Origin: Chthoniobacterales bacterium
GTDB taxonomy: Bacteria > Verrucomicrobiota > Verrucomicrobiia > Chthoniobacterales > Chthoniobacteraceae
DNA: 64,000 nt
Assembly (NCBI GenBank): GCA_038207335.1
Contig: JBBQZX010000001.1
Coordinates: 64,001 to 128,000 of the forward strand
Direction: 5' to 3'
Below the pieces are notes generated by a model. It made no database searches. It saw only the letters and a program-made list of their open reading frames with translations, and was not told the origin of the DNA. A program made the translations under genes and the position numbers. Numbering within the stretch: the stretch's first letter is position 1; each line of letters starts with the position of its first letter. Positions 10,017 to 29,533 of this stretch are shown in pieces.

Positions 10017-11408
10017 TCAACGCGCGCCGAAGCCGAAAATCACGACGGGGATCGTGCGCAAAAGGATCGCGAAATCGAGCCAGAGCGACCAGCCGTCGAT
10101 GTATTGCAGATCAAGCTGCACCCATTCGTTGAAGCTTTTCACCTTGTTCCGCCCCGCCACCTGCCACAGGCACGTCAGCCCCGGCTTCATGCTGAGACGG
10201 CGTCGCTGCGCAGTCGTCTCGAATTTCTCCACTTCGTAGATCGGCAGCGGACGCGGCCCCACGAGGCTCATCTCGCCTTTCAAGACGTTCAGTAGCTGCG
10301 GCAATTCATCGAGGCTCGTCTTTCGCAAAAAGCGCCCGAGCTTCGTGATCCGCGGATCGTTTTCGATTTTGAAAACCGGCCCGGACATTTGGTTGAAAGC
10401 CGCAAGTTCTGCCTGCTGCATCGCGGCATCGGTGCGCATCGAGCGAAATTTATACATCGTGAAAGGTCGCCCGTTTTTGCCTCCACGCAGTTGGCTGAAA
10501 AAGATCGGCCCCGGCGACGTGATGCGAATCGCAATCGCGACCGCGATGAGAATCGGAGCTGCGAGCACGAGCCCGACGAAAGCTCCCGTGCGGTCGATGA
10601 CGCTCTTCACCATGAGCGCCCACGACAAATCCGGTGTGGTGCGAAAGACGAGCATCGGCCGTGTTCCGAAGACATCGAAGGCCGGACGCGCGATCGACGT
10701 GCGGATGAAATCTGCGATCAGCCACGCCTCCACGCCCTCGGTTTCGCACGCCGCGATTGCGTCCTGCAAATTGTTCAGATGGCTGTGTCCGCCGGCAAAA
10801 ATAACGCGACTCACCGAGTGCCGATGCAGCGCTTCCACGAATTCCGCAAGCGGCTGATTTTCAATATCGAACTCCTCGACGACCTCGAGCTCCATGATCT
10901 GCTCCGCCGTGAAGGTGTGCCGGAGTTGATGCGTGTCGGCCTTTGTGCCGGCGAGGATGATCGATTCGCGGAGGGACTCAGTTTTTGCACGATGGCGCAG
11001 CCGCTGGATGCCGATTCGTTCACGCAGGAGCAGGAGCACCGGCGCGATGAGGAGAAATAGCGGCATCACGGCGCGGCTCGGCACTTGGAGTCGCAGGAAA
11101 TAGGAGCACGCGGCAATGATGAGCCCGAGCCAGAACGCGGCACGCGCGAGTTGCCCGAGAGACTTCGCGAGCGTCTTCTGGAGCGGATGGGTGTAAAAGC
11201 CCTGCAACTCCAGAATGATCGGGCCGAATGGCATAATCACGAAAAGTAGCCACTGAAATTCCGAGAACGGACCGATCGGTTTGTCGAAAATAGTCCAGTC
11301 GCTGCCGAGGTAGCGCAGCGTGTGCGCGAACCAGAACGCGATGACCAGAAGGATGCCATCGACGATCTGCTGGAATTGGAGATTCAGTTCTTGTTTTCGG
11401 CCGAGCAT
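10017..11408 (-). CDS. Polyprenyl-phosphate glycosylphosphotransferase (WcaJ/WbaP-like priming sugar transferase)
   Basis: N-terminal TM helices; KFRSM, DPRITKLGRFLRKTSLDELPQLLNVLKGEMSLVGPRP, KPGLTCLWQV. Confidence 0.93.
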   Translation of the reverse strand: MLGRKQELNLQFQQIVDGILLVIAFWFAHTLRYLGSDWTIFDKPIGPFSEFQWLLFVIMPFGPIILELQGFYTHPLQKTLAKSLGQLARAAFWLGLIIAACSYFLRLQVPSRAVMPLFLLIAPVLLLLRERIGIQRLRHRAKTESLRESIILAGTKADTHQLRHTFTAEQIMELEVVEEFDIENQPLAEFVEALHRHSVSRVIFAGGHSHLNNLQDAIAACETEGVEAWLIADFIRTSIARPAFDVFGTRPMLVFRTTPDLSWALMVKSVIDRTGAFVGLVLAAPILIAVAIAIRITSPGPIFFSQLRGGKNGRPFTMYKFRSMRTDAAMQQAELAAFNQMSGPVFKIENDPRITKLGRFLRKTSLDELPQLLNVLKGEMSLVGPRPLPIYEVEKFETTAQRRRLSMKPGLTCLWQVAGRNKVKSFNEWVQLDLQYIDGWSLWLDFAILLRTIPVVIFGFGAR

Positions 11409-12645: not shown

Positions 12646-12846
12646 TTAAAAGAGCGTGTAGATGAACGGCGCAGCGGAGGTGGCTCCGAGGATGAGCAGC
12701 GCTGCGAAAAGGCCGAGGATGACGACAATCGGGATCATCCAGTACTTCTTGTTGTGCTTCAGCATTTCGACGATTTCGCGTCCGAGGCTCGGCGGTTTTT
12801 CGTCGCCGGCTTGCTTGAAGGTTTTCGGTTCGTCGGGCTGGCTCAT
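12646..12846 (-). CDS. SxtK/DUF5989-like 66-aa single-TM protein
   Basis: KKYWMIPIVVILGLFAALLILGATSAAPFIYTLF; the APFIYTLF end is characteristic of SxtK; ATG 12846 lies 8 nt after the sxtJ-like stop. Confidence 0.85.
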   Translation of the reverse strand: MSQPDEPKTFKQAGDEKPPSLGREIVEMLKHNKKYWMIPIVVILGLFAALLILGATSAAPFIYTLF

Positions 12847-12854
12847 GTGGAGAT

Positions 12855-13292
12855 TTAAAATTGGCGGAAATAGCGGGCCGGATCGACCGACTTTTCGGCA
12901 TCGCGCCAATACGTCGGACGCGTGGGATCCCATTTTTTCTGCAGAGGATCGCGGCCGAAGGCGCGCATGAGGACGCCGATGGGCGTGATGACGAGGAAGA
13001 AGAACGCGGCGACGAGAACATTGCTCATCACGATGCCGATGCAACACGCCACGAAAAACCAGAGCAGATAAAACGGCTTCGCCACCGCAGGGAAAATCCA
13101 AAGGGCGACGCCGACGAGGATGCCATACGTGAGGAATTCCGAGAGGTGCGGCTTCGGGGCGATGATGTGCAACCATGCAGCGAGGCGAAGTGCGATTTTG
13201 ATCACCGCAAAGCCGATCGCCATCGTGCGGGCAAAGCTGCGCCGCTCGTTGAGGTTCGGATGCCAGTTGGTGTCGGTGAAGGGGTTGATCAT
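12855..13292 (-). CDS. SxtJ-like membrane protein
   Basis: RSFA, hydrophobic helices, FFLVITPIGVLMRAFGRDPL, TYW, C-terminal RQF; directly follows the carbamoyltransferase. Confidence 0.8.
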   Translation of the reverse strand: MINPFTDTNWHPNLNERRSFARTMAIGFAVIKIALRLAAWLHIIAPKPHLSEFLTYGILVGVALWIFPAVAKPFYLLWFFVACCIGIVMSNVLVAAFFFLVITPIGVLMRAFGRDPLQKKWDPTRPTYWRDAEKSVDPARYFRQF

Positions 13293-13304
13293 TCGTGCGG
13301 CGAT

Positions 13305-15152
13305 TCAGTCCAGCCCGAAGCTCTTCACGTATTTTGATTTCTCGGTGTCGGAGAGTTGCGGCTGCTCGGGCTTGAAGAGGATGCAGTTTTCCAACACGAG
13401 CACGTCCATTTCGCTCGCCATGAAGCAGCGGTAGGCATCCTGCGGGGTGCCGACGATCGGTTCGCCGCGAATGTTGAAGCTCGTGTTGACGATGAGCCCG
13501 CAGCCGGTCTGGCGTTTGAACTCGCGGATGAGGCGGTAGTAGCGGCCGTTGCGACGCTCATCGACGGTCTGGATGCGCGCGGAAAAATCGACGTGCGTGA
13601 TCGCGGGGACGGTGGAGCGGGGGATATTTACGCGTGTGCGGAGATCGGGGTCGCACATGGCTGTGAGCTGGTCGGACGAGAGCGGGAGGCGCTTCGATTC
13701 GCGTACGGACGCGACGAGCAGCATGTAGGGCGACTCGCAGTCGAGATCGAAAAAATCGGGTGCGTCCTCAATGAGGCAACTCGGAGCGAAGGGGCGGAAC
13801 GACTCGCGGTATTTGATCCGCAGATTCATCTGCGACTGCATCGCGGGGCTGCGCGCGTCGCCGATGATGCTGCGGGCACCGAGCGCGCGCGGGCCAAATT
13901 CCATGCGGTCTTGAAACCAGCCGACGACCTTTTCCTCGCGCATCGCATCGACGGTTTTGGTGAGGAGTTCCGCTTCGTCGGCGATGAAGTGGTGTGGGAT
14001 TTTCTCTGCATCGAGGAATGCGCGGATTTCGTCGTTGGAAAATCGCGGGCCGAGCAATGCTCCTTTCAGCGAGTCGTGCGGGTCTGCCTTTCGATCGAGC
14101 CCGAGGAGATGGAATTGCGCAAAGAGCGCGGCTCCGAGCGCGCCGCCTGCGTCTCCCGCGGCTGAGGGAATCCAGATGCGATCGAAGATTTTCTCGCGGA
14201 GCAGGACGCCGTTCGCGACGCAATTCAGTGCGACTCCGCCGGCGAGCACGAGATTGCGTGAGCCGGTGAGCGCGCTGGCGTGTCGCGCCATGCGGAGGAC
14301 GATTTCCTCGGTCACTTTTTGGATCGAAGCGGCGAGGTCCATCTCGCGCTGCGTGATCGCCGATTCGCTGAGGCGAGGTGGGCCGTCGAAGAGCGTGTCC
14401 AACTTCGGACCGGTCATCGTGAGGCCCTGCGCATAGTTGAAAAAGCTCATGTCCATCGCGAACGATCCGTCGTTCTTGAGGTCGATGAGTTTCTCCAAAA
14501 TCACATCGGCGAAGCGCGGTTCGCCATACGGCGCAAGGCCCATAAGTTTGTATTCGCCGCTGTTGACTTTGAACCCGCAGAAATACGTGACCGCGCTGTA
14601 GAGCAGGCCGAGTGAGTGGGGAAATTCGAGCGTTTTGAGCAGCTCAATTTTGCTGCCGCGCCCGTGGCCGATGCTCGCGGTGTCCCACTCGCCGACGCCG
14701 TCCATCGTGAGGATCGCGGCGTCGTCGAAAGGCGACGGATAGAACGCGCTCGCGGCGTGGGATTCGTGATGGAGCGTGAATGCGATGCGTTTTTTGAAGT
14801 CGCCGCCGAGCGATTTTTGGATTTCGCGCGCGAGATGCAGCTTCGTCTTCAGCCACAGCGGGAGGGCCATCATGAACGAGCGCAGGCCCGATGGGGCGTA
14901 GGCGAGATAGGTCTCGAGGAGGCGGTCGAATTTGAGGAGCGGCTTGTCGTAGAAGACGACGTAGTCGAGTTGGTCGGAAGTGATGCCTGCCTCGCGAAGG
15001 CAGTATTTTACAGCGTTCGAGGGGAATGCGTGGTCGTGCTTGATGCGCGTGAAACGCTCCTCCTGTGCGGCGGCGACGATGTCTCCATCGACGATGAGCG
15101 CGGCTGCGCTGTCATGGTAAAAGGCTGAGATGCCGAGGATGCGCGTGCTCAA
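13305..15152 (-). CDS. O-carbamoyltransferase (NodU/CmcH/TobZ/SxtI family)
   Basis: GISAFYHDSAA, EERFTRIKH, HHESHAAS, DGVGE, EYKLMGLAPYG, GGVALNC, EFGPRALG, IKYRESFRPFAP, NTSFN; TTG start overlaps the MBOAT stop (TTGA). Confidence 0.95.
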   Translation of the reverse strand: MSTRILGISAFYHDSAAALIVDGDIVAAAQEERFTRIKHDHAFPSNAVKYCLREAGITSDQLDYVVFYDKPLLKFDRLLETYLAYAPSGLRSFMMALPLWLKTKLHLAREIQKSLGGDFKKRIAFTLHHESHAASAFYPSPFDDAAILTMDGVGEWDTASIGHGRGSKIELLKTLEFPHSLGLLYSAVTYFCGFKVNSGEYKLMGLAPYGEPRFADVILEKLIDLKNDGSFAMDMSFFNYAQGLTMTGPKLDTLFDGPPRLSESAITQREMDLAASIQKVTEEIVLRMARHASALTGSRNLVLAGGVALNCVANGVLLREKIFDRIWIPSAAGDAGGALGAALFAQFHLLGLDRKADPHDSLKGALLGPRFSNDEIRAFLDAEKIPHHFIADEAELLTKTVDAMREEKVVGWFQDRMEFGPRALGARSIIGDARSPAMQSQMNLRIKYRESFRPFAPSCLIEDAPDFFDLDCESPYMLLVASVRESKRLPLSSDQLTAMCDPDLRTRVNIPRSTVPAITHVDFSARIQTVDERRNGRYYRLIREFKRQTGCGLIVNTSFNIRGEPIVGTPQDAYRCFMASEMDVLVLENCILFKPEQPQLSDTEKSKYVKSFGLD

Positions 15153-16591
15153 AACTGGAAATAGACGAAGGGCCGAGCCTGCTGCTGCGGGCCGGTGAGC
15201 GCGAGCGCGAGGAATGCGACGGCGAAGGCGTAGTAGGCGCTCCAGCGGAGCCAGCGCGGCTTGGTGGCGAGGATGTCCCAAACGGGTCGCGCGCGGCCGA
15301 TGGACTCGGCGGCGAAGAGCGCGCAGACGAGGGCGAGGGCGATGAGGAATTCGGCGGAGCTGAGGCCGGGATGGAGGGTGGCGATGGGCGCAGTGAAGTC
15401 GGTGAAGATACGCCGCATGATGAGAGATGCGTCGGCGAGATTCGAGGCGCGGAAGAAAACCCAGGTGAGGGCGATGAGATTGAAGACGAGCGCGATTTTC
15501 AGTGCAGCGGCGAGGGTGGACGGGTGCGGATTTGTGGGACGGATTTTGCGTAAGAGGAGTTGCGCGCTGACGAAGATTCCGTGGAGGAGGCCCCAGACGA
15601 CGAAGGTCCAATTTGCGCCGTGCCAGATACCGCTGAGGAAGAAAACGATGAGGAGATTCACGCAACGGCGGGCGAGCGGGACGCGGCTGCCGCCGAGCGG
15701 GATGAAGACGTAATCGCGGAACCAAGTGGAGAGTGAGATGTGCCAGCGACGCCAGAATTCGCCGACGGACTGCGCTAGATAGGGCCGCCAGAAATTCCGC
15801 ATGAGGTCGATGCCGAGGATGCGCGCGGTGCCGCGGGCGATGTCGGAGTAGCCGGAGAAGTCGCAATAGATCTGGACTGAAAATGCGTAGGTCGCGATGA
15901 GAAGCTGCGCGCCGGAATGCTGTGCTGGAGCGGCATAGACGGCATCGACGAGGATCGCGAGGCGGTCGGCGATGACGACTTTTTTGAAGAGACCGGAGGC
16001 GATGAGTTTCAGGCCGTCGAGGCAGCGGGCGAGGTCGAAGCGGATGAGCCGGATGTTGTGAAATTGCGCGAGAAGATTTTGCGGACGTTCGATGGGGCCG
16101 GCGACGAGCTGGGGGAAAAAGAGGACATAGACGGCGAAGTTGAGGAGCGAGCGCTCGGGCGGAACGCGTCGCCAATAGACCTCGAGCGTGTAGCTCATTG
16201 ACTGAAACGTGTGGAAGGAGAGGCCGATGGGCAGGAGGATCGCGAGGTGCGATAGCGGCGCGGGCTGGCCGAAATGTGCGAAGAGTCCTGAGATATTGTC
16301 CTGAAAGAAATTGAAGTATTTGAAGAAGCCGAGGAGGGAGAGATTTGCAGTCAGACTCGCGGCGAGGATCACGCGACGCCGCGTGCCATTGGCCTTTTCC
16401 AAGAGGAGCCCGGAGGTGAAATCGATGAGGATGACGCCGAATAGGATAAGGATGTAGGCAGGGACGAACGCCATGTAGAAGACACAACTGGCGACGAGCA
16501 GCAGCGGCATCCGGGCGCGGACGGGTAGGAGGAAGAAGAGAAGCGCGACCAGCGGGAAAAAGACCGCGAACTCAAGAGAGTTGAAGAGCAT
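15149..16591 (-). CDS. MBOAT family O-acyltransferase (AlgI/DltB-like) with C-terminal FVYFQF motif
   Basis: MLFNS, LPIGLSFHTFQ, FPQLVAGPIER, QIYCDFSGYSD, FWRRWHISLS, SGIWHGA (catalytic His). Confidence 0.95.
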   Translation of the reverse strand: MLFNSLEFAVFFPLVALLFFLLPVRARMPLLLVASCVFYMAFVPAYILILFGVILIDFTSGLLLEKANGTRRRVILAASLTANLSLLGFFKYFNFFQDNISGLFAHFGQPAPLSHLAILLPIGLSFHTFQSMSYTLEVYWRRVPPERSLLNFAVYVLFFPQLVAGPIERPQNLLAQFHNIRLIRFDLARCLDGLKLIASGLFKKVVIADRLAILVDAVYAAPAQHSGAQLLIATYAFSVQIYCDFSGYSDIARGTARILGIDLMRNFWRPYLAQSVGEFWRRWHISLSTWFRDYVFIPLGGSRVPLARRCVNLLIVFFLSGIWHGANWTFVVWGLLHGIFVSAQLLLRKIRPTNPHPSTLAAALKIALVFNLIALTWVFFRASNLADASLIMRRIFTDFTAPIATLHPGLSSAEFLIALALVCALFAAESIGRARPVWDILATKPRWLRWSAYYAFAVAFLALALTGPQQQARPFVYFQF

Positions 16592-16665
16592 TCAGCGGAG
16601 AAATTAAACCGCGGAGGAACGGCGCCGCCGAGAATACCAGAGGCGTTCAATGCGCACTTTGCTGT

Positions 16666-17700
16666 TCAATGTTTTGTCGTTGCGATTGGAAGGTGGAGGG
16701 GATTTTCGCGGATGAGTTGATTCACGAAAATGTCCGCCATGAGGACGTGTCCGGCGGCGTTTGGGTGTGGGTCGTCGGCTTGGATCCAAAGCGAGGTGAC
16801 GTCGGCTCCGAACTGCTTTTGGAAGGTGGGAAAGGTGTTGGTCGTCGGGATGCCGAGTGCGGTGAAAGCGGTTTCCATTTTCGCGTAGAGGGCGGCGAAT
16901 GGTGAGCCGGGGGCGAGGTCGTGAATGTCGGGGATGATCTGAATTTCAAAGGACACCCCGGCGGCTCGGCAGCTGTCGCGCAACGCAGCGATGTGCTCTC
17001 GCGTGATTTTCCATGCGTCGGAATCGTCGGCGTAGAGCTGGTTGTAGAAGGTGAAGAGGTCGGTTTTTTGCTGCCGGAATTTGAACTGCCCGAAGCGGTC
17101 GTAGCAGAAGGCGGCGAGCAGCGAATGCTTTAGCAGAGGGCTGTCGTGGCCCATCGAGCGCGGCTGCACGTCGCTGATGAAGTAGTGGAGCAGCACCATG
17201 TCCGGTCGGACACGCGGGAATTGATCAAGGAAAAGCTGGTGCTGGAAGACGGTGTTGTAGTTGCCGATCCCGGCGTTCTGGATTTCAAAAGTGACGTCGG
17301 GGCCGAATAGCTTTTCGGTGTTGAGGCGATGCTCGGCGACGGCGGTGAAGACGGAGTCGGCGGAGACGCCCCAGCCCATGGTGATTGAGCTGCCGAGGAC
17401 GAGGATGCGCTCGGTGCCGGGGGGCTTTGGCTCGAGGAGTTCGGGGGCGCGGTTACCGAGGGAGTTGAGCGAAATTTCCACGCCCATGAGCCGCGCGCTG
17501 CTGCCCGGACGATGGACATGGCTGACGATGCCGCGAGGGTCGCGCATTTTCAGCGCCTTCGCGTATTTCACCATCTCGATATTGTAGATGAGCTTGCGCG
17601 CGGTAATGAGGCGGAGCGCGAGTTCGCCGAGCGCGAGGGTGAGGACGGTCGCGGTGAGGATGAAGATGCAGCCGAAGATCAGCTCGCGTTTGCGGGTCAT
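16666..17700 (-). CDS. Membrane-anchored SGNH/GDSL family protein
   Basis: N-terminal TM, NSLGNR, LVLGSSITMG, NAGIGNY, DDPHPNAAGH; start at ATG 17700. Confidence 0.85.
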   Translation of the reverse strand: MTRKRELIFGCIFILTATVLTLALGELALRLITARKLIYNIEMVKYAKALKMRDPRGIVSHVHRPGSSARLMGVEISLNSLGNRAPELLEPKPPGTERILVLGSSITMGWGVSADSVFTAVAEHRLNTEKLFGPDVTFEIQNAGIGNYNTVFQHQLFLDQFPRVRPDMVLLHYFISDVQPRSMGHDSPLLKHSLLAAFCYDRFGQFKFRQQKTDLFTFYNQLYADDSDAWKITREHIAALRDSCRAAGVSFEIQIIPDIHDLAPGSPFAALYAKMETAFTALGIPTTNTFPTFQKQFGADVTSLWIQADDPHPNAAGHVLMADIFVNQLIRENPLHLPIATTKH

Positions 17701-17827
17701 GCGAAAAAGGCGGAAATGGTCGAACTCCCGGGCACTAGGGAGGCGGGAGCGATGTGCGCCGCGCGCCGGGGTGGCGAGGCCCGGAGTTTGCACTTACGAT
17801 TTGCCCGCGAAAGTGAATTCTGCGCGC

Positions 17828-19009
17828 GTGAATTTTTCTCTGAAGGCAAAGCTGGTCGTGGCGCTTTTCGCGACGCTGTTTTGCATCCTCTTTCTAGAAG
17901 CCGCCGTGCGGATGATGTGCCGCCGGGATGTGGATGGGAATGTGTGGGTCCGATCGACGCACCTGAAGCCGTATTGTGTGCCGGTGAGATCGGTGGAGGC
18001 GGTGCTCGAGCAGTATGCGGCGAGACCCGATTCGGCGCTCGAATACGATGCGCAGCTCGGCTGGACACAGCGCCCCGGCGTCGATGTCCACAACGCGCAG
18101 GGGTTCATTTCATCGCAGCCGGAGGTGCCGCTTGTGGCAGCCTCCGGGCGGCTGCGCGTCGCGGTGTTTGGCGGCTCTTTTACGCAGGGGAATTTCCAGA
18201 CGGGCTGGTGGCGGGTGCTGGAGGAAAAATTGCGTGCCGCCGGGGTGGACGCGGAGGTGCTGAACTTCGGCGTGGCCGGTTACGGGATGGATCAGACACT
18301 GCTTCGATGGAGGCTGGACGGGGCGAAGTACTGCCCGGAAATCGTGGTCTTTGGTTTCTGTGCCGCGAATGCACGGGACAATGTGAACCTCGTCCGCGCG
18401 CTGCAGCACGCGGATAGCAGCATTCCTTTTTTAAAGCCACGCTTTTTGCTGGATGGTGAAAATCTGAAGCTGATCGATTCACCGACGCCGCCGCCGGATG
18501 CTGTGGCCGGGCTGCTAGCTCGGCTTTCGGAGTGGCCGTTGATCGGGGACGATTTCTTTTACGACCCGGATGATTTTCGGATGACATTACGGCGGAGAAG
18601 CCGCCTTTACGCCATGGTGGAGGCGAAAGTGGAGGCACTCACGGAGGGACGAGGGAATGCAGAGATTTACGCGCCGGAGGGTGAGCCGATGCGGCTTTCG
18701 GAGGGGATCGTGGATGAGTTTGCGCACCAGGTGGAGGTGGCGGGGAGCCGGTTCGTCGTCCTGAATCTGCCGACGGCGCCTGACCTTTTCGAGTTTCAAA
18801 CGCGGGGGGCATTTTCGTTTGAAAGCCTGTATCGTGCGTTGGAGAAAAAGCACGAAATGGTGCCGACGGAGGGCGCGCTTCTGGACGCTGCCGGGACTCG
18901 GCCACTCCGCGGTTTTTATCATGACGGTCACTACTCGAAGGAGTTCAACGCGGTGATTGGGAGGGTGCTGGCGGATGCGATACGAAGGGGGCGGGAGACT
19001 GGGAAGTGA
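17828..19009 (+). CDS. Membrane-anchored SGNH/GDSL family protein
   Basis: N-terminal TM, LGW, NAQGF, AVFGGSFTQG, NFGVAGYG, DGHYS; start uncertain (GTG 17813 or 17828). Confidence 0.82.
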   Translation: MNFSLKAKLVVALFATLFCILFLEAAVRMMCRRDVDGNVWVRSTHLKPYCVPVRSVEAVLEQYAARPDSALEYDAQLGWTQRPGVDVHNAQGFISSQPEVPLVAASGRLRVAVFGGSFTQGNFQTGWWRVLEEKLRAAGVDAEVLNFGVAGYGMDQTLLRWRLDGAKYCPEIVVFGFCAANARDNVNLVRALQHADSSIPFLKPRFLLDGENLKLIDSPTPPPDAVAGLLARLSEWPLIGDDFFYDPDDFRMTLRRRSRLYAMVEAKVEALTEGRGNAEIYAPEGEPMRLSEGIVDEFAHQVEVAGSRFVVLNLPTAPDLFEFQTRGAFSFESLYRALEKKHEMVPTEGALLDAAGTRPLRGFYHDGHYSKEFNAVIGRVLADAIRRGRETGK

Positions 19010-19042: not shown

Positions 19043-20185
19043 CTATTTTGTCCAGCGGTGGGCGTCGGGGCTTCGAAGGAAATGGATGAAGCCGCGGACG
19101 ATTGTGATGTTCAAAAAAAGAAATCCGGCGGGGAGCGAGAGGATGCGGGAGCGTGCGGACGGGAGCGCGATGCCGACGATGGCGAGAGCGTAGAAACAGC
19201 TCTGGCAGATGAATGGGAGGCGATACAGCCGATGAGCGAGGAGCGCGAGGTTGCTGGCGAAAAGCGCCGCGAGGAGGAACGGGGCGAGGAGGCGCAGGTA
19301 TTTGTGGGAGATTAGTTGCCACCAGAGGCGGTGCTTCCATGGGAGGAGCCACGCGGGATGCGCGATGAGCATTTGGAAATTACCGGCGAGTGTGCGGCGT
19401 TTGCGGTGGCGCTCGGCGGCGGGGCTCAGTGGCTGCGGGTCGAACGCAAGCGCGTCCGGGTCATGCAGCACCCGAAAGCCGCGAGCGGCGATCTGCATCG
19501 GAATGACGACATCATCGAGGATCGTGCCGGGTGCGAGCGGTGTGAATGCGGAGCGACGGATCGCGTAAACGGCGCCGGTGCAGCCGATGCAGGAATCCCA
19601 GTCGGATTCCGCGGCGCGGATGGATTTCTCCATTCGCCAGTACGCGTCCACGCCTTTGGCGAGGCCACTCTCCGAGGGTGCGATCTCGAGCGAGCCACTG
19701 ACGGCTCCGATTTTAGGATCGGAAAAATGCGCGGTGAGACGCGCGATGGTGTCGGATGAAAAACGCTGGCGCGCATCGGTGAAAACGAGGATATCCGCGG
19801 AGGCGCGCCGAACGGCGGCGTTGAGCCCGGCGGCTTTTCCGCGACGCTCGGCGAGGGAAAGCATGTCGATGCGCGAGCTTTCCAATGCGTGAGCCGCGGT
19901 GGTGGTGGCGTCAGTGGAACCGTCCGATATGAGGAGGACGCGCAACTTTTCGGGCGGATAGTCAGAGGCGAGCAGGTTTTCGATTCGCGTGGAAATGAGA
20001 GCGGCTTCGTTGTGCGCGACGACGATGGCGCAGACCTCGGGTTGTGGATGATCCTGCGCCATGGCGATGCCGCGAGCGCGGCGGTGCGCGAGGAAGCCGA
20101 TGAGGAGCTGGTATCCGAGAAATGTGTAGGCGAGCGCGAGCCCGCTTCCCCAAAAGATCGCGGTGAAAATGGGTGCGCCAGTCAT
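19043..20185 (-). CDS. Glycosyltransferase family 2 with N- and C-terminal TM segments
   Basis: VAHNE, SDGSTD, GKAAGLN, FTDA, TGAVYAIR, ILDD, RKRRTLAG. Confidence 0.9.
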   Translation of the reverse strand: MTGAPIFTAIFWGSGLALAYTFLGYQLLIGFLAHRRARGIAMAQDHPQPEVCAIVVAHNEAALISTRIENLLASDYPPEKLRVLLISDGSTDATTTAAHALESSRIDMLSLAERRGKAAGLNAAVRRASADILVFTDARQRFSSDTIARLTAHFSDPKIGAVSGSLEIAPSESGLAKGVDAYWRMEKSIRAAESDWDSCIGCTGAVYAIRRSAFTPLAPGTILDDVVIPMQIAARGFRVLHDPDALAFDPQPLSPAAERHRKRRTLAGNFQMLIAHPAWLLPWKHRLWWQLISHKYLRLLAPFLLAALFASNLALLAHRLYRLPFICQSCFYALAIVGIALPSARSRILSLPAGFLFLNITIVRGFIHFLRSPDAHRWTK

Positions 20186-20222
20186 GTCTTCGCGAGCCCG
20201 CATGGCCGCACAGCCGAGGCGC

Positions 20223-21674
20223 TCACATGCGCTTCAAAACGGCGGCCCAGAAATGAATGGTGGCCCAGACGATAGTCCCAATGGCCAGCAGGTCGAACCA
20301 GCCGATGCGATTCCACGGCATCGCCGTGTTTGGCGCGGTTTCGGGCTCCATATTGTCGCGCTGCAAAGTGGCGATGGCCGCCACCGGTTCGAGCGCGAGC
20401 ACTGCGGTGTCGATGGCAGGCGCGAGTTCGCCGGCAAGTTCGGGCGTTGGCAAAAAACGACCGCGCCAGGACGGGATGGCGGGCGTGAGCGGCGCGGCTT
20501 CCGGATCGGGAACGTATTGCGAGATGCCGCGGAGATGCCGGTGAAATGCGGCGATCGCGGCGGTGAACATGAAGAAAGTCGGGCGATATCCGAAATCCAC
20601 CATCCATGAGGAAACGAGGTAGGAGACGACGAGGACGAAGAGACATCGCCGGATGCGCTCGTCGTCGTCCGTGGAGGTTTTCGCGGTGATGAGTGTGCGC
20701 AAATTGCAGAAGAGGACGCCGAGAAAGCAGAAGAGGCCGACTTTTCCCAGCTCCGCACCGATCTGCACGTAAGAAGAGTGTGCAGCTTTGTTGTAGTGGT
20801 GGACGGCCTTGAAGTCTTTTAGCCACTGGCCGTATCCGATCCCGGTTGTGCGTGTCTGTAGGCGGTTCAGGCCGTGGGTGAATGCGACGACGCGGCCCAT
20901 GATCGCGCCATCTGATTTCGCGCGGTCGAGTTCTGTCATGCGCGGAAGTTTCCAGAGGACGGCTCCGCCAAAACTGATCGCGGCGACGATGATGATTATC
21001 TGCACAGCCTTTGGCCGGCCAAACGTCTGCGTCGCGAGCACGGTGGCTGCGGTGCACAGAAACGCGCCTTTCGAGAGTGTGAGGTAGATGCACAAGAGCG
21101 GCAGGAGGATGAGGGTGATGCCAAGGCATTTCACTACGACTGGGCGCTTCCAGACGAAGAGGAAGTAGATCATTGGGATCGCCGGGACGACGTTGTGACC
21201 GAGCGCGTTTGGGTTTTTGAAGATGGAAAGATTGATCGTGAGGCGTCCTTGCATCCGGCCATTCGTAATCTCATAGCTGCCGAGCGGGTCGAATCCGTAC
21301 TCGCTCGCGACGGCGAGTGCGGCGAGGGCGACGACAAGGAGCGCCCACCAGCCGACGAATTGCCGAATGCGGGGCGTGGTGGTGAGCGTCTGGACGATGA
21401 CAACGTAGAAAACGGCGAGCGGGAAAACCGCCTTGCAGGTCTCCCAATGCGCGTCGGATGCGCTGATGATCCATGCGAAAAATGCGAGCATCATCCAGTC
21501 GTGCGGCGTCCTGAGCAGGTCGCCAAGGCGCAGGCTGCGCTCGCGAAAAAAGAGGGTGACCAGCGCCATGATCATGACGAGCTGGACGAAGTGGAGCTTT
21601 GAAAAAATAGCCCCCCACTCCTGCGGACGGATGTAATACATCACGAGGAAAAGGATGACGGAGACGAAGTCCAA
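20223..21674 (-). CDS. O-antigen ligase / Wzy polymerase-like membrane protein
   Basis: Many TM helices, NPNALG, TLSKGA, GIGYG, AHSSY...AELGKVG (Wzy_C signature). Confidence 0.82.
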   Translation of the reverse strand: MDFVSVILFLVMYYIRPQEWGAIFSKLHFVQLVMIMALVTLFFRERSLRLGDLLRTPHDWMMLAFFAWIISASDAHWETCKAVFPLAVFYVVIVQTLTTTPRIRQFVGWWALLVVALAALAVASEYGFDPLGSYEITNGRMQGRLTINLSIFKNPNALGHNVVPAIPMIYFLFVWKRPVVVKCLGITLILLPLLCIYLTLSKGAFLCTAATVLATQTFGRPKAVQIIIIVAAISFGGAVLWKLPRMTELDRAKSDGAIMGRVVAFTHGLNRLQTRTTGIGYGQWLKDFKAVHHYNKAAHSSYVQIGAELGKVGLFCFLGVLFCNLRTLITAKTSTDDDERIRRCLFVLVVSYLVSSWMVDFGYRPTFFMFTAAIAAFHRHLRGISQYVPDPEAAPLTPAIPSWRGRFLPTPELAGELAPAIDTAVLALEPVAAIATLQRDNMEPETAPNTAMPWNRIGWFDLLAIGTIVWATIHFWAAVLKRM

Positions 21675-21761
21675 TTCGGTGAAAGTTGAGGGTTGTTGAG
21701 GTGAGCGTTGAGACGGATCTTTCGCTATTCTCCTTCCGGCAGGGCAGGGAAGAGTGAAGGA

Positions 21762-22892
21762 CTAACCGGCTCGGCGTGGTGCGGCGGTGGCGCGGTAGAG
21801 GCGCTCGTAAGCGTCAAGCATCGCGGCGATCGAGAAGCGGTCTACCGCTTTCCGGCGCGCGGCGCGGGCAAATGTAGCGAGCTGTGCGGGGTCGGCAAGC
21901 AGCCCGGTGAACGCGGCGGCGAGAGCGGTGGAGGTGGAGAGGTCGGTGATGATTCCGTCACGGCCGCTGTCGATGAATTGCTCGTGGCCGCATCCGGTAT
22001 TCGCGAGAACAGGGACTCCGCAGGACATGGCTTCTAGCGCGGCGTTCGAAAGACCTTCATTCGAGGAGGGGACTGCGAGGAGATCGAGCGCTTGGTAAAA
22101 TGGAACCGGGTCGAGTTTGAAGCCTGTCAGATGGATGCGATCGCAGTGCGGACTCGCTGCGGCGCGGTCGTGGATCGCACGTTCCTTTGGTCCGCCGCCA
22201 CCGATCACGAGGAGGTGTGCCGCTGGAAAATGGGGTGCGATTTTCTCGAATGAATCGAGGAGAACATCGTGGCGTTTGAACTCACCGAATCGCCCGGAGA
22301 TGCCAATGAATACAGCATCCGCAGGTAATCCGATCGCGTCGCGGGCGACGGAACGCTGCGCGGGTGTGAAGCGTGTGGTGTCCACGCCGTTTGGAATCGG
22401 CGTGATTCTTTCGAGTGGAAAATGGAGTGCGGCGAGTTGCGCGCGGATGCCGTCGGAGACGGTGTGAACGTGGCGGCAAGTGCGGTAGAGCCAGCGGCGT
22501 TGGCGCAGGCGTTTCGTGGTTAGGTCGGCGTCGGTTAGCTGGCTGTGCTCGCCGTGGAGGAGTGGCGTTCGGTAGCCGGCGAGCGTGGCGAGTGCGGAGT
22601 AAATGAGCGGGCCGAGATTGTGACTGTGGACGACATGAGGACGGACGCGGGAAATCTGCCGGGCGAGGCCGCGCACGGCTTTCCACGAAAAAGCGGTTTT
22701 TTTTCCCAGCACTTCGACGTCGCTGGGCGCTGGCAAACGTGCTGCGAACGCGCCGCGGCGCTCGAGGCAGGCGATGTGCATTTCGATGCCGCGTGGGAGC
22801 AATCCGCTGGCGAGATTGACGACGCCATTTTCCATCCCACCGGGTTCGAGCGAGTGGACAACGTGGAGGATTTTCAGCGGTGCGCTGCTCAC
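21762..22892 (-). CDS. Glycosyltransferase family 4
   Basis: ILHVVHSLEPGGME, VVHSH, IPNGVD, PSSNEGLSNAALEAMSCG; GTG start overlaps the upstream stop. Confidence 0.92.
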   Translation of the reverse strand: MSSAPLKILHVVHSLEPGGMENGVVNLASGLLPRGIEMHIACLERRGAFAARLPAPSDVEVLGKKTAFSWKAVRGLARQISRVRPHVVHSHNLGPLIYSALATLAGYRTPLLHGEHSQLTDADLTTKRLRQRRWLYRTCRHVHTVSDGIRAQLAALHFPLERITPIPNGVDTTRFTPAQRSVARDAIGLPADAVFIGISGRFGEFKRHDVLLDSFEKIAPHFPAAHLLVIGGGGPKERAIHDRAAASPHCDRIHLTGFKLDPVPFYQALDLLAVPSSNEGLSNAALEAMSCGVPVLANTGCGHEQFIDSGRDGIITDLSTSTALAAAFTGLLADPAQLATFARAARRKAVDRFSIAAMLDAYERLYRATAAPRRAG

Positions 22893-23923
22893 CGGGTGCG
22901 TGGAAATGCGCCTTCCACAGCGGGCGGTGCGGTGACCTTTGCCGGTGCAGTGAGGAGGAATCGTGCGAGTGTGCGAAGCCTGAAAAGTGGACGCTCGGTG
23001 ATGCGGCCCGGGCGGAGAAAAATCGGATACAAAAGGACGGATGTCGTGAGGTAGGCGAGCGGGCGTAGGCGGAGCCCTTCGTCGAAATGTGTCCACGCGA
23101 TCTGGAAATAATGAACAGACCATGCGCGGAGCCAGAAGGGGATGTCGGCGTGTGAAACCGCCGCAGAAGACCAGGCTTTTCGCAGCACGGCGCGCGAGTT
23201 GTGCATCATGCGGGCGGCATTTTTGCTCATGTTGCCGGAGTGTCGGCGGATGAGCGCGAGTGGTTGGCCGATGAACCAAACGCGGTACCGCTTGGCGGCG
23301 CGAATCCACATGTCGCGATCCTCGGAACTGCGCAGCGAGGTATCAAAGTCCCCGCATTTTGCGAAGACGTCGCGGCGGATGACGATGGAGGAGGAGAGGG
23401 GGCGGTTGCGGAGGACGAAGTCGCGCGCGGTCAGCTCGCGGTCGGGCTCTGGGGCGGAATAGCGGGATTCGACGTGTGCGCCAGCGGAGTCCATTCTGAA
23501 ACTGTTCGTGGCAACGAGGGCGAAGGAATCGGAGAGTTGCGCGAACTGGCGCATGACATCCGCGAGGAGCGAGGGAAGCCAGAGATCATCGGCATCAAGG
23601 AATGCAACGAAGGGAAATCGCGCCTCGTGGATGCCGGTGTTCCGAGCGGCGGAAAGCCCGGCATTTTCCTGCCAAATATAGCGGACGCGAGGATCGGGTT
23701 GCTGTGCGACGATTGCGCGAGTGTCATCCGTGGAGCCATCGTCGATCACGATGACTTCCAGTTCGCGGTGCGTCTGGGCCAAACCGGACGCGATCGCGCC
23801 GAGGAGATAGTGCGCGTAATTGTGCGCGGGGATGACTACGGAAACACCGACAGCGCGACTCTCCGCATTGCCGACGCGCTGTGGCTGCGAAGAAAACTCC
23901 GGCTCAAGGCCACGACTCATCAC
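22889..23923 (-). CDS. Glycosyltransferase family 2
   Basis: VSVVIPAHN, IDDGSTD, NAGLSAARN, FLDADD, SED. Confidence 0.92.
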   Translation of the reverse strand: MMSRGLEPEFSSQPQRVGNAESRAVGVSVVIPAHNYAHYLLGAIASGLAQTHRELEVIVIDDGSTDDTRAIVAQQPDPRVRYIWQENAGLSAARNTGIHEARFPFVAFLDADDLWLPSLLADVMRQFAQLSDSFALVATNSFRMDSAGAHVESRYSAPEPDRELTARDFVLRNRPLSSSIVIRRDVFAKCGDFDTSLRSSEDRDMWIRAAKRYRVWFIGQPLALIRRHSGNMSKNAARMMHNSRAVLRKAWSSAAVSHADIPFWLRAWSVHYFQIAWTHFDEGLRLRPLAYLTTSVLLYPIFLRPGRITERPLFRLRTLARFLLTAPAKVTAPPAVEGAFPRTR

Positions 23924-26103
23924 GCATTCTCGAGGGTGTGCGTGTTGTAGTAGTAGTCGTGGGAGTAGTAGTAGTACTGGTAGTAGTTCTGCGTGGCGTT
24001 GAGATCGAGGCGATTGAGGATGAAGCCATAAAAGTTAGCCCCGTTCCCATTGAGCATCTCGATGGCCGCCTTCATGTTGCGGATCGGTGTGTGTCCGCTC
24101 CAGATGACGAAGAGCACGCCGTCCACGTAGCGCTGAAGAATCGACGTTTCGGACAGACCGAGGACCGGGGGAGTGTCGATGACGATGCGATCGAAAGTGC
24201 CGCGCAGAAGCGTCATGAGGTCTGCGAACTTCTGCGAGCCTAGCAGTTCGGTGCCGGTTTCGAGATGGCGTCCGGCACTGAGGACGGTGAGGTTTTCGTG
24301 CGTCGTGGGGCGCAGCGCTTCATCGAGGGTGGCCTCGCCGAGAAGGACGTTGCTGAGGCCGGGGCTCTTCCGATATCCAAAGAGCCGATGGAGACGACCA
24401 CGGCGGAGGTCGGTATCGACGAGAAGCGTCTTGGAGCCGGTCTGTGCGAACGAAATAGCAAGATTGGACGAGACGACTGTCTTGCCCTCTTTAGGCATCG
24501 CGCTCGTGATCATCATGACGTGCGGCGGCTTGGAGAGCGCGCCCATCGAGAGGAGATTCGTGCGAATGACGCGGAAGTTTTCGACGAGACTGGACTTGGT
24601 GGAGTCCTCGGTGTCGATCAATGCAGGTGCGGTGGTGGTTTCGACTTTTGGGACGATACCGAGTCCGCGAAGCTGGAAGGCGGATTCTACCTGGTCGAGA
24701 TTCGAGAGCGTGTGGTCGAGATATTCGATGAGGAAAGGAATGCCGAGGGCAAGGACGGCGCCGAGGGCGAGCGTAAAGATGAGCAGCTTCATCCGATTCG
24801 GTGAAACTGGGCGATCGTGAACCTCGGTCAGGCCGGCGAACGTGAGGTCGATGCGCTCTTTGTCGTAGGCGTAGTCGAGAGCCTGTAGGCGTTGCATCAT
24901 TTGTTTGTAGATGCTATTCCAGCGGAGCTGGCCGTTATCGAAAAGCGTGCTGTCGAGCTTGATCAGATCGGCCTTTTTATTGACATCGGCGTACTGCGGC
25001 AGCTTGTGCTCGAAGTCCTGCTTTTTGTTGAGCAGATGCTGATACTCGACCTCAAGGCGGTTCTGAGCGACTTGGAATTCAGCGTCGAGCTGCTTACGGA
25101 CGTCCTCCATTTGCTTGGTGAGGGCGATCATTTTATGATGGCCTGGGAGATAAATTTTCGAGGCTTCGGCCCTCTCGTTCTTGAGTTGCTGCTGCTGCTT
25201 TTCCAATCCCTCCCAAGGCCTTGCTGAAGAAACCATGGAAGGCACGACGACCATGGAATTCCCGGACGTCTGACCGGAATTTTTGCCATCGTCAGCAGCG
25301 GTGTCGCCTGACGAATTCGAGTCCTGAGATAACGGTCCCAGAAAATTGATGTCCGGTGTTTTCTCCATCGCGACGGTCGCGATCAGGGAGAGCTTGGTGA
25401 CGCTGTCGAGCGCCGGGTCTTGAATCTGGATGCGGACCCGGCCGAGTTCGTCAAGGCGTTTTCGGATGCGGACGAGTTCGACGGGAATGCTCCGCATTTC
25501 GTTGAGTTCGATGAGGGTTTTCTGCGAGTCGCGTTCGTCCTTGAAATCGAAGCGTTTACCAATGTTCGCGATGAGCTTGTTCCTGACTTCCTCGGTCTCG
25601 CGGGTGTATGCCTCGAAGATTTCGTCGCGGTCGTGGACGCGTTTTTCTTTACGATAGGACAGGAACTCGTTGACGAGCGTTTCAGCCCAGACATTCGCGA
25701 GCGGGGCGGTCGTGGGCCAGACTTCGATCTCGAGGTTCTTTTCGGAGTTTTGCCGGATGCTGACCTTGAGGACGTATTTTGAGGCGATTTCACGCGCACT
25801 GCCCTTGAGCCCGAGTTTTCGTGCGGTCCGTTCGACGATGTGCGGAGCCATCATTTCGCGGATGATCGCCCGGATGCGCCCGTCGTGGTAAATTTTGTCG
25901 GTGTCCACCGGCAGGGCGAGGTAGTCCATCTGGACCAGAGCGCGGGCGTAATAAACGGGTCGGGCGTAAACGTAGTAGGCTAGTCCCGCGCTCAGACTCG
26001 CCGCCATCAGAAGCAGCATCAGCCGCAGATGTTTGCGGGCGATCGCGACGTACATGATGACGTCGTGAAGATTGAGAACACGTTTTTTAAGACCGGGGAT
26101 CAT
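23920..26103 (-). CDS. Polysaccharide co-polymerase / BY-kinase (Wzc-like)
   Basis: Two TM segments around a coiled coil, PVSP, Walker A SAMPKEGKT, DTDLR, IDTPP, Tyr cluster YYQYYYYSHDYYY. Confidence 0.93.
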   Translation of the reverse strand: MIPGLKKRVLNLHDVIMYVAIARKHLRLMLLLMAASLSAGLAYYVYARPVYYARALVQMDYLALPVDTDKIYHDGRIRAIIREMMAPHIVERTARKLGLKGSAREIASKYVLKVSIRQNSEKNLEIEVWPTTAPLANVWAETLVNEFLSYRKEKRVHDRDEIFEAYTRETEEVRNKLIANIGKRFDFKDERDSQKTLIELNEMRSIPVELVRIRKRLDELGRVRIQIQDPALDSVTKLSLIATVAMEKTPDINFLGPLSQDSNSSGDTAADDGKNSGQTSGNSMVVVPSMVSSARPWEGLEKQQQQLKNERAEASKIYLPGHHKMIALTKQMEDVRKQLDAEFQVAQNRLEVEYQHLLNKKQDFEHKLPQYADVNKKADLIKLDSTLFDNGQLRWNSIYKQMMQRLQALDYAYDKERIDLTFAGLTEVHDRPVSPNRMKLLIFTLALGAVLALGIPFLIEYLDHTLSNLDQVESAFQLRGLGIVPKVETTTAPALIDTEDSTKSSLVENFRVIRTNLLSMGALSKPPHVMMITSAMPKEGKTVVSSNLAISFAQTGSKTLLVDTDLRRGRLHRLFGYRKSPGLSNVLLGEATLDEALRPTTHENLTVLSAGRHLETGTELLGSQKFADLMTLLRGTFDRIVIDTPPVLGLSETSILQRYVDGVLFVIWSGHTPIRNMKAAIEMLNGNGANFYGFILNRLDLNATQNYYQYYYYSHDYYYNTHTLENA

Positions 26104-26239
26104 TTAGGGAGTGCCGCCGGGGTGGGCGAGAAGTTCAAAAAAATTGCAACCAACAAACGCCAAGGTGACGCGAAAACGGAGATACGCAATCTTTTGACGA
26201 GAACCCCTTCACGAGAGCGCGCTTGGCGCTCGGGTGCCG

Positions 26240-27448
26240 TCAGAAGCTGAACCACTTTTCCGGCACGACGACGATGTCGCTGCTCTGGAGTACGACATCA
26301 GGCGACTGTCCCTTTTGAATTCCGACGACGTTGACGTCGAGTTTCGCCTTGGTGCCATCCGGCAGTGCGCGCAGGACGTGGACATGCCTGAGATCGGCAA
26401 ATTTCGCAAAGCCGCCGCTCTGCAGGATGGCGCCGTATGCCGTGAGTCGCTCGCCTTGGACGAGGTGGTAACTGCCTTGGCGCTTCACGTTCCCAGTGAC
26501 GTAAACGAGGTTTGCGGTGCCGATCGGAATGGTAATGACGTCGCCTTCGCTCAACGAGATATCGGAGGTGAGTCCGCCACCATCGAGGATCTTCTGCACG
26601 TTGACTTCTTCTACGATCCCTTTGTGTGCGGCGACGCGCATGACTTTGACGCGCGTGAGGTCGGCTTTTTCAGAAATGCCCCCACAGCTCAAAATGACGC
26701 CGACGAGTGTGGGTGCAGTGCCGGCGGGGATGCGGTAGGGGCGGGGATTTTTGAACGCGCCAGCGAGGTAGATGAGCGGGCCGGACTCGAGATCAACGCC
26801 GGAGACACGCTCGACGATGACAGAGGCGTGCTGCAGTTGCGAACTCTGGAGAGCATGGCGGACCGAGGCCTCTGCCGCGTCCAGCGATTTGCCGGCGACG
26901 GCGATGCGGCCGACTTGCGGCAGGATGATGTATCCCCCTCGGCGGACTTGGTAGCGGCCGTTAAAGGAAGGGTCTTCGACGACAAAGATTTCGAGGTTTT
27001 CGCCGGGAGCAACGACATCGCTGCCGGTGAGGACGGGCGCTTGGACCGGGTTGACTTTCTGGAGTTCGGCCTCGACTTGAGCGAGCTGCGCCCGGGTCGC
27101 CTGAAGGCGTGTCTCCCAGTCCTTGACGTCTTGGTTTGAGCGGTCTGCCTGATCGACGTTCCCCGCCGCACTCTGGATTGCGAGCCGTTTCTGTGCGGCA
27201 TCGAGCTTGGCTTTACCGTAGCGGACTTCACCTTCCAGCGTCTGCTTTTGCTCGGCGAGGCTTTCGGATTCGGCTGCGGCGACCCCTGGTGAAACGACTT
27301 CGACTTGAGAAGCGGTGTTAAGGGGGATCTCGGATTTTCGAAAAGTCACCTCTTTTTGTTCAGCCACTTGGCCATACACCGAAGTGCATGAAAGCAGCGC
27401 GATCCCACAGATTGCAGCGAGTGAAAAGGAGGATTTTTTGTGATTCAT
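26240..27448 (-). CDS. Polysaccharide export OPX protein with SLBB repeats (Wza-like)
   Basis: Signal peptide, GYIILPQVGRIAVAGKS, SLBB repeats (VYVTGNVKRQG), ends at VVVPEKWFSF. Confidence 0.88.
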   Translation of the reverse strand: MNHKKSSFSLAAICGIALLSCTSVYGQVAEQKEVTFRKSEIPLNTASQVEVVSPGVAAAESESLAEQKQTLEGEVRYGKAKLDAAQKRLAIQSAAGNVDQADRSNQDVKDWETRLQATRAQLAQVEAELQKVNPVQAPVLTGSDVVAPGENLEIFVVEDPSFNGRYQVRRGGYIILPQVGRIAVAGKSLDAAEASVRHALQSSQLQHASVIVERVSGVDLESGPLIYLAGAFKNPRPYRIPAGTAPTLVGVILSCGGISEKADLTRVKVMRVAAHKGIVEEVNVQKILDGGGLTSDISLSEGDVITIPIGTANLVYVTGNVKRQGSYHLVQGERLTAYGAILQSGGFAKFADLRHVHVLRALPDGTKAKLDVNVVGIQKGQSPDVVLQSSDIVVVPEKWFSF

Positions 27449-27533
27449 CTAGGGTGGAGTTTGGAAAACGGGCGTGAGAGTAGGGACCTGAGATTTTGCG
27501 TCAATGCGTAACGCGTCGAATGACGAATTTAGG

Positions 27534-29237: not shown

Positions 29238-29533
29238 ACCGTACGGCCTCTTTTGAGATTTTGATGCCGTTTCTGCCGACTTTGCTTTCCGAGAAAAAGC
29301 TGCGGCAAATCCTCCCGGCGAAAGGAAAAAGGCAAATACGCCAGCAGACCCAACACTGGGAAAACCACGACGATCCCGAGCCAGAAATTGCGCTGAGACC
29401 GCGTGAAAGGCTGCGCTAAAACGCTGGATACGGTGCAAACCAGCACGACAAGCCAGACGAAGAGCAGGCAGACCGCGACCTCGGGGCTGAGCTTGGCTTG
29501 TTGAAAACTAAAACGGGTGAGGAGATCGCGCAT
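29234..29533 (-). CDS. Small two-TM protein (PLDc_N-like)
   Basis: Two hydrophobic helices with RNFWLGIVVVFPVLGLLAYL and a basic tail. Confidence 0.7.
   Translation of the reverse strand: MRDLLTRFSFQQAKLSPEVAVCLLFVWLVVLVCTVSSVLAQPFTRSQRNFWLGIVVVFPVLGLLAYLPFSFRREDLPQLFLGKQSRQKRHQNLKRGRTV

Follow-up and report, generated by a model that had tools for sequence, protein, structure and literature searches.

A 64,000-nucleotide stretch of a Chthoniobacterales genome (GCA_038207335.1, contig JBBQZX010000001.1, positions 64,001 to 128,000), hereafter the window, whose own numbering is used throughout, encodes two SGNH proteins (SGNH1 and SGNH2), a membrane-bound O-acyltransferase (MBOAT), a carbamoyltransferase (CT), an SxtJ-like membrane protein and an SxtK (DUF5989) microprotein between positions 12646 and 19009. 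We propose that these genes specify two parallel tyrosine-shuttle routes onto a Wzy polysaccharide, one in which an acyl group passes from the MBOAT to SGNH1 and another, MBOAT-free, in which a carbamoyl group passes from CT through SxtJ and SxtK to SGNH2, a reading we hold with about even confidence. An earlier note on this DNA had proposed a carbamoyl relay built from a tyrosine shuttle and an SGNH protein, with either the MBOAT or SxtJ and SxtK taking the group across the membrane. The SxtJ/SxtK branch of that proposal survives, whereas its MBOAT branch fails; the note's own main alternative, in which acylation and carbamoylation follow separate routes, is now the better reading.

SxtK, SxtJ and the carbamoyltransferase

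SxtK (12646-12846, minus strand, 66 aa; PF19451, E 5e-18) has one transmembrane (TM) helix and ends in FIYTLF, an instance of the FxYxxF motif with its tyrosine at position 63. PMC12148441 defines FxYxxF as the acyl shuttle motif of DltX and PatA. The FxYxxF end is present in 119/120 SxtK homologues. In 60 loci from the phylum and 7 from the taxonomic family, collected with a Pfam model rather than with the DNA tail pattern used for the cross-phylum set below, all 68 SxtK-like open reading frames carry a tyrosine among their six C-terminal residues, with a full FxYxxF end in 65. Basic residues lie upstream of the TM helix in 150/150 sequences, so the hydrophobic C-terminal tail, 10-15 residues long in most of them, likely faces outside. 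Two fusions tie SxtK to its neighbours. The first, in L041, joins an SGNH domain to four hydrophobic or TM segments, the last being SxtK, and this even number puts the SxtK tail and the SGNH domain on one side of the membrane; the second, in L077, joins SxtJ to SxtK. UniRef applies the label SxtK to a DUF5989 protein. Together, these features suggest that SxtK acts as a carbamoyl shuttle. Searches for SxtK relatives in the PDB found none, and the DltX family was not among the best 25 of 63 Pfam families for SxtK, both proteins being very short. Separately, SxtK-like microgenes with variant tails (ends NFQYNI, EFIYTL and FVYNVY) follow the SGNH-SxtK fusion (L041:2325-2682 and L140:87-287) and may be shuttles of different specificity.

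The genomic company of SxtK was surveyed in two sets of loci. Data with one genome per species, searched with a nucleotide pattern that matches the SxtK tail, gave at least 120 loci from many phyla, of which 80 had long flanks and 40, with 300-base flanks only, were dropped; removal of two chance matches (L064, L092) and one locus cut by a contig end (L089) left 77. Within ~10 kb of SxtK, CT is found in 69 of these, SxtJ in 70, SGNH in 48 and MBOAT in none, and among the 48 loci with 8 kb on both sides the counts are 46, 46, 33 and 0, respectively. The phylum set (60 loci out of 70 matches) has CT in 49, SxtJ in 47, SGNH in 32 and MBOAT in one. Thus, of the five families whose co-occurrence the earlier note had put forward as a check, CT, SxtJ and SGNH accompany SxtK, and MBOAT does so in 0/77. 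Counts by tblastn agree, and the MBOAT search was sensitive enough to recover the gene in L201, L212 and L215. MBOAT-free modules include those in L042 (Flagellimonas abyssi) and L084 (Dyadobacter tibetensis). These counts are descriptions rather than tests, and related genomes are not independent.

The same association holds at the level of whole genomes. Of 301 phylum genomes, 67 contain SxtK, 66 SxtJ, 65 both and 233 neither; CT is present in 65/67 SxtK genomes, and of the 18 CT genomes without SxtK, 15 contain only enzymes 30-44% identical. Isolated SxtK genes raised the question of whether the protein serves other donors when alone. This was dismissed, as SxtJ and CT are neighbours at another site of the genome in 8/8 drafts examined and in G070; CT was also found in 4/5 and 4/5 further stand-alone cases. 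One family (L167, L172, L177, L179, L180, L187 and L197) has SxtK alone with SxtJ and CT together elsewhere, and mur/fts cell-wall genes lie near several of its stand-alone SxtK copies.

CT (13305-15152, minus strand, 615 aa, TTG start; PF02543 and PF16861) is a NodU/TobZ-type, class III enzyme of the SxtI subfamily and has no TM helix. It aligns to GdmN and TobZ and contains the Carbam_trans_N and _C domains, the catalytic histidine and the iron ligands; residues H13, Y68, H128, H132, D151 and D334 are kept in 106-107/107 enzymes. With 139 bits against a curated cut-off of 1000, it fails the NodU equivalog model NF041651. The segment around helix 1 is rich in large hydrophobic residues in the 107 SxtJ/SxtK-linked enzymes (mean fraction 0.41, minimum 0.26), compared with 0.18-0.34 in six others. 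A second CT of another subfamily often lies no more than 10 kb from the module (L049, L058, L059, L061, L086 and L093).

SxtJ (12855-13292, minus strand, 145 aa) is modelled with high confidence (pLDDT 93.9) as three helices (14-40, 48-66 and 68-111), and a fold search gave no match at E<=0.001. Y128, W129 and Y141 are its most conserved residues. SxtJ narrowly misses the PF19588 cut-off (22.3 bits against 24.4), and its identity is backed by its homologues, most of 93 of which carry this domain. Short forms of 59-78 aa (L044:9527-9763, L044:11563-11742 and L041:6169-6378) do without helices one and two, suggesting that the core needed for function consists of the long helix and the C-terminal part.

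A model of the three proteins together supports their association. The complex of SxtJ, SxtK and CT scores 0.88, compared with 0.02 for the best of three controls and 0.02 when SxtJ is replaced; the mark used for this score is reached by 116/157 solved and 2/215 mismatched pairs and is only roughly applicable here, with three chains and our own alignments. Runs share at least 96% of contacts, and partner pLDDT is at least 89. Searches of solved structures gave no relative for either SxtJ or SxtK, which makes recall of a known structure by the model less likely. The top contacts pair SxtJ Y128, W129 and Y141 with CT segments 70-87 and 230-241; in an alignment with GdmN, these segments correspond to helix 1 and loop 4 of its acceptor pocket. 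CT is therefore predicted to dock on SxtJ/SxtK at the membrane through Y128/W129 and Y141 of SxtJ.

The genes, motifs, co-occurrence and fusions behind the carbamoyl relay are seen in the genomes, and the transfer chemistry is proposed by analogy. Firstly, CT would turn carbamoyl phosphate and ATP into carbamoyl-AMP, as TobZ and GdmN do and as its catalytic residues suggest. SxtJ is predicted to hold CT at the inner membrane face, where Tyr63 of SxtK would be loaded; in this putative geometry, the hydrophobic tail would reach into the membrane beside SxtJ. Finally, the tail would pass the group to the SGNH2 serine outside and from there to a sugar hydroxyl of the glycan, as in DltX/DltD and PatA/PatB. 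Aryl carbamates readily carbamoylate serine hydrolases, and carbamoyl-serine hydrolyses slowly, so that transfer would be favored; unsubstituted aryl carbamates are also labile.

The MBOAT and the two SGNH proteins

The MBOAT (15149-16591, minus strand, 480 aa; PF03062, E 7e-32, 111.5 bits) has a C-terminal tail of its own, FVYFQF, which also matches FxYxxF, and H324 within its conserved WHG motif may be equivalent to His315 of PatA. The sequence suggests an ordinary AlgI/PatA-type enzyme that probably uses acyl-CoA. According to PMC12148441, a DltX-like protein is absent where the MBOAT has a tail of its own, so the second tail, that of SxtK, points to a second route. Among the relatives of this MBOAT, 73/75 complete ones end in FxYxxF; an SGNH gene, detected with our own profiles, lies beside 38/80, and CT, SxtJ or SxtK beside 1/80. 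Beside the CT-SxtJ-SxtK module, the MBOAT appears to be a passenger with its own shuttle.

The idea that the MBOAT is a required carrier for the carbamoyl group is dismissed by its near absence from SxtK loci (0/77 and 1/60), the 1/80 of MBOAT loci with module genes, and genomes with no match to PF03062. That an MBOAT acts from elsewhere in the genome is unlikely as a rule: PF03062 was not matched in 20/66 SxtK genomes of the phylum, including the single-contig genome G177, which has the full module, nor in 15/30 genomes of other groups, although drafts can hide genes. For the taxonomic family itself this dismissal is limited, as 5/5 genomes with no MBOAT in the locus hold other MBOATs.

SGNH1 (16666-17700, minus strand, 344 aa; PF13472, E 2e-7, 31.9 bits against a cut-off of 32.9) has an N-terminal anchor (TM 7-25) and the residues S105, D310 and H312. 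Its block II glycine is replaced by asparagine and its block III asparagine by serine. The predicted structure is a confident SGNH fold (pLDDT 95.6), and the nearest solved fold is CgnD (TM-score 0.50). CgnD is an SGNH protein from the crocagin cluster, in which a carbamoyltransferase gene is present as well; no SxtJ- or SxtK-like gene appears in the supplement table rows inspected, and 'sxt' has no match in the files covered. SGNH2 is encoded divergently on the plus strand, probably at 17828-19009 (~393 aa, with an inferred start in a reading frame open from 17588), scores 27 bits against PF13472, under the cut-off, and has an N-terminal anchor and GGS and DGH motifs. Pfam cut-offs are thus passed by the MBOAT, CT and DUF5989 and narrowly missed by SxtJ and both SGNHs; the latter two are backed by their motifs and, in SGNH1, by the fold model.

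The two SGNHs differ in genomic company, SGNH1 occurring with the MBOAT and SGNH2 with CT-SxtJ-SxtK. It is likely on these grounds that SGNH1 accepts the acyl group, probably acetyl, that the MBOAT would load onto its own tail, and moves it to the polysaccharide; SGNH2 would accept the carbamoyl group. In a midpoint-rooted FastTree tree built on 242 columns from 155 SGNH domains, which were collected with profiles seeded from the window, both proteins fall in a clade of mainly SxtK-linked members (support 0.86), where the sister sequences of SGNH1 come without an MBOAT. All MBOAT-linked SGNH1 proteins (7/7) have GSS in block I and serine in place of the block III asparagine, which MBOAT-free relatives keep (9/9 checked); as these seven form one clade, the changes count as one event. 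SGNH1 may therefore have exchanged the SxtK tail for that of the MBOAT as its shuttle. One genome of the taxonomic family (G391) has an extra SGNH2 copy between the MBOAT and CT (L318:11028-12266).

Competing routes and the proposed target glycan

The most serious alternative, possible but in our view less likely, is that SxtJ and SxtK do no more than anchor and activate CT at the inner face, that CT directly carbamoylates a lipid-linked repeat unit or another membrane-bound acceptor, and that the SGNHs are outside hydrolases that trim or edit the product. The predicted complex fits this well, since it lies wholly on the cytoplasmic side with the acceptor pocket at the membrane. CT is cytoplasmic whereas the SxtK tail points outward, the contacts of the model name SxtK residues 10-51 and not the tail, and the three helices of SxtJ show no MBOAT-like funnel. 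Known class III enzymes transfer directly (PMC9633730), and WapO is credited with the carbamoyl group of the Pseudomonas lipopolysaccharide (LPS) core, no helper proteins being named in the passages covered (PMC8005017). SGNH is also the least constant neighbour of SxtK, undetected in 15/48 full cross-phylum and 18/41 full phylum loci. A block II glycine, described in PMC12148441 as a mark of hydrolases rather than transferases, is retained in 31/47 SxtK-linked SGNHs, including SGNH2; CgnD is reported as a slow peptide hydrolase; and SxtL was proposed as a decarbamoylase (PMC2679770). Each of these points weighs against the relay, as do two below on SGNH1 and the glycan context. However, direct transfer leaves unexplained the almost invariant outward FxYxxF tail, the SGNH-SxtK fusion of L041 with tail and SGNH on the same side, and the existence of a large SGNH clade whose members are mostly linked to SxtK.

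We consider it improbable that, in this taxonomic family, the MBOAT was recruited to the carbamoyl route, with CT activating the group, the MBOAT loading its own tail or SxtK, and SGNH1 transferring it. The MBOAT and CT genes overlap (TTGA), and the MBOAT with a close SGNH1 stands beside the module in seven genomes (the window, L212, L215 and L315-L318) in two gene orders, SGNH2-CT-SxtJ-SxtK being co-directional in L315 and L316 with SGNH1-MBOAT divergent from them; an MBOAT also stands beside it separately in L201 and L295. SGNH1 itself descends from SxtK-linked SGNHs and groups with them rather than with the SGNHs found at other MBOAT loci; we assign it to the MBOAT because the two co-occur in one clade of seven. 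Yet the proteins themselves speak against a specialised MBOAT. The seven module-linked MBOATs form one clade (support 0.98), all keep the FxYxxF tail (7/7) and depart in no consistent way at the 96 positions where 73 stand-alone relatives are conserved; 89 of these positions are unchanged in all seven. Moreover, the same-genus locus L216 has SGNH2-CT-SxtJ-SxtK, with a CT 88% identical, and neither SGNH1 nor MBOAT, and the block I and III changes of SGNH1, one event in one clade, fit a new acyl group. L320 and L321 lack an MBOAT, and the module there is accompanied by a protein distantly related to SGNH1. Duplicate regions L218-L221 were excluded from alignments and trees.

Returning to the two-route proposal, the target would be the neighbouring Wzy polysaccharide. 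The abutting Wzy/Wzc/OPX locus described in the earlier note was found again: from 19043 to 29438 on the minus strand lie, in this order, genes for GT2, Wzy_C, GT4, GT2, Wzc, OPX and a BBP2 porin, which we refer to as the Wzy-dependent exopolysaccharide (EPS) locus. The same genes occur inside the same EPS locus in seven other genomes of the taxonomic family, so the arrangement is not due to chance. Across eight genomes (the window, L215, L216, L315-L318 and L320), the module is kept within this locus through rearrangements. Beyond the taxonomic family, at least two glycan genes lie near the module in 15/48 cross-phylum and 6/41 phylum loci, against 16/229 tiles of the window's genome, with models from that genome, and in 17/48 and 5/41, against 17/229, with models from the loci themselves. 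The glycan context is thus patchy, enriched across phyla and hardly within the phylum.

This patchiness would fit a relay that is real but has another molecule as its target, such as LPS, peptidoglycan, a glycoprotein or an exported small molecule, a version to which we give little credence. The few glycan genes near most phylum loci, the saxitoxin cluster, whose genes from these four families act on a small molecule, and the scattering of the genes in some genomes speak for it. The retention of the module inside one EPS locus in the eight genomes speaks against it.

Relation to known systems and neighboring genes

Comparison with characterised systems places the two routes differently. Like PatA/PatB and AlgI/J/X (PMC12148441), the MBOAT-SGNH1 pair combines a tailed MBOAT with an anchored Ser-Asp-His SGNH beside it. 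By sequence it has the PatA/PatB features, namely an MBOAT domain with the histidine, the FxYxxF tail and an adjacent anchored SGNH. It differs in that SGNH1 is of SxtK-linked lineage with serine for the block III asparagine, and in having a second shuttle protein in the operon. SxtK resembles DltX of the DltB/DltX/DltD system (as described in PMC12148441) in being an N-in microprotein with a single helix, whose FxYxxF tail points outward and which is partnered by an SGNH. Unlike that system, the SxtK unit has no tail-less MBOAT or carrier protein among the genes scanned, and it is probably loaded by a NodU/TobZ enzyme that docks on SxtJ from the cytoplasm. By analogy, the SxtK unit likely works like DltX/DltD, yet it falls outside the Dlt systems, having no obligatory tail-less MBOAT.

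The sxtI-sxtJ-sxtK-sxtL part of cyanobacterial saxitoxin clusters has the same four families as the window's CT, SxtJ, SxtK and SGNH; the window unit qualifies as an sxtIJKL-type module. In three papers, SxtI is said to act with SxtJ and SxtK in carbamoylation (PMC2679770, PMC2684587, PMC12300590), and SxtJ and SxtK are listed either as of unknown function or as acting with SxtI in these and in bioRxiv 10.64898/2026.06.11.731795. In contrast to the saxitoxin genes, the window unit lies within an EPS locus and belongs to a unit widespread across many phyla; among 33 proteins scanned at 1-40 kb of the window, the rest of the genome not being searched, there are no core sxt biosynthetic genes. 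With TobZ, GdmN, NodU and WapO, CT shares the Kae1-like and YrdC-like domains, the catalytic histidine and the iron ligands (PMC9633730, PMC8005017). Its subfamily differs from them in a conserved, more hydrophobic segment (70-105) and is nearly always found with SxtJ and SxtK. We found no paper that deals with DUF5989 or with carbamoyl transfer by a tyrosine shuttle among sources judged by title and the start of the abstract; subscription literature, the primary DltX paper and bioRxiv supplements could bear on this.

We tentatively suggest, at somewhat less than even confidence, that CT-SxtJ-SxtK-SGNH forms a third tyrosine-shuttle class beside MBOAT-SGNH and AT3-SGNH, with a soluble, ATP-using enzyme that directly loads a membrane microprotein and no need for an acyltransferase channel. 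In it, FxYxxF would be an interchangeable plug, and SGNH1, which is of the carbamoyl lineage, would have been reconnected to a newly arrived MBOAT, so that one polysaccharide would carry both acyl and carbamoyl groups. If this is true, the acyl-tyrosine relay would be extended to carbamoyl groups and freed of its membrane enzyme, and two families with no assigned function, DUF5989 (67/301 phylum genomes and many other phyla) and SxtJ, would gain one. A common, overlooked O-carbamoyl decoration on bacterial surfaces would be predicted, and SxtL-type proteins would be carbamoyl transferases outside the cytoplasm rather than decarbamoylases.

The layout of the block itself agrees with the six genes, the overlap and the divergent second SGNH reported in the earlier note. 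SGNH1 and MBOAT are separated by 74 nucleotides, CT and SxtJ by 12, and SxtJ and SxtK by 8. A promoter scan found no sigma-70 site, and terminator matches were near chance level. The source names attached to homologues point to Verrucomicrobiota. CT, SxtJ, SxtK, SGNH1 and SGNH2 are single copies in the genome, which holds three more MBOATs elsewhere. In L215 (G308), a 54%-complete draft, CT and several EPS genes are frameshifted, likely through assembly error. Just past the BBP2 gene, a polysaccharide pyruvyl transferase gene (30524-31765, plus strand) may add a third glycan decoration. Between a WcaJ-type priming sugar transferase gene (10017-11408, minus strand) and the EPS genes lie the module, a gene for a receiver-domain protein and one for a type I dehydroquinase, and this gene order is repeated in L215 and L216.

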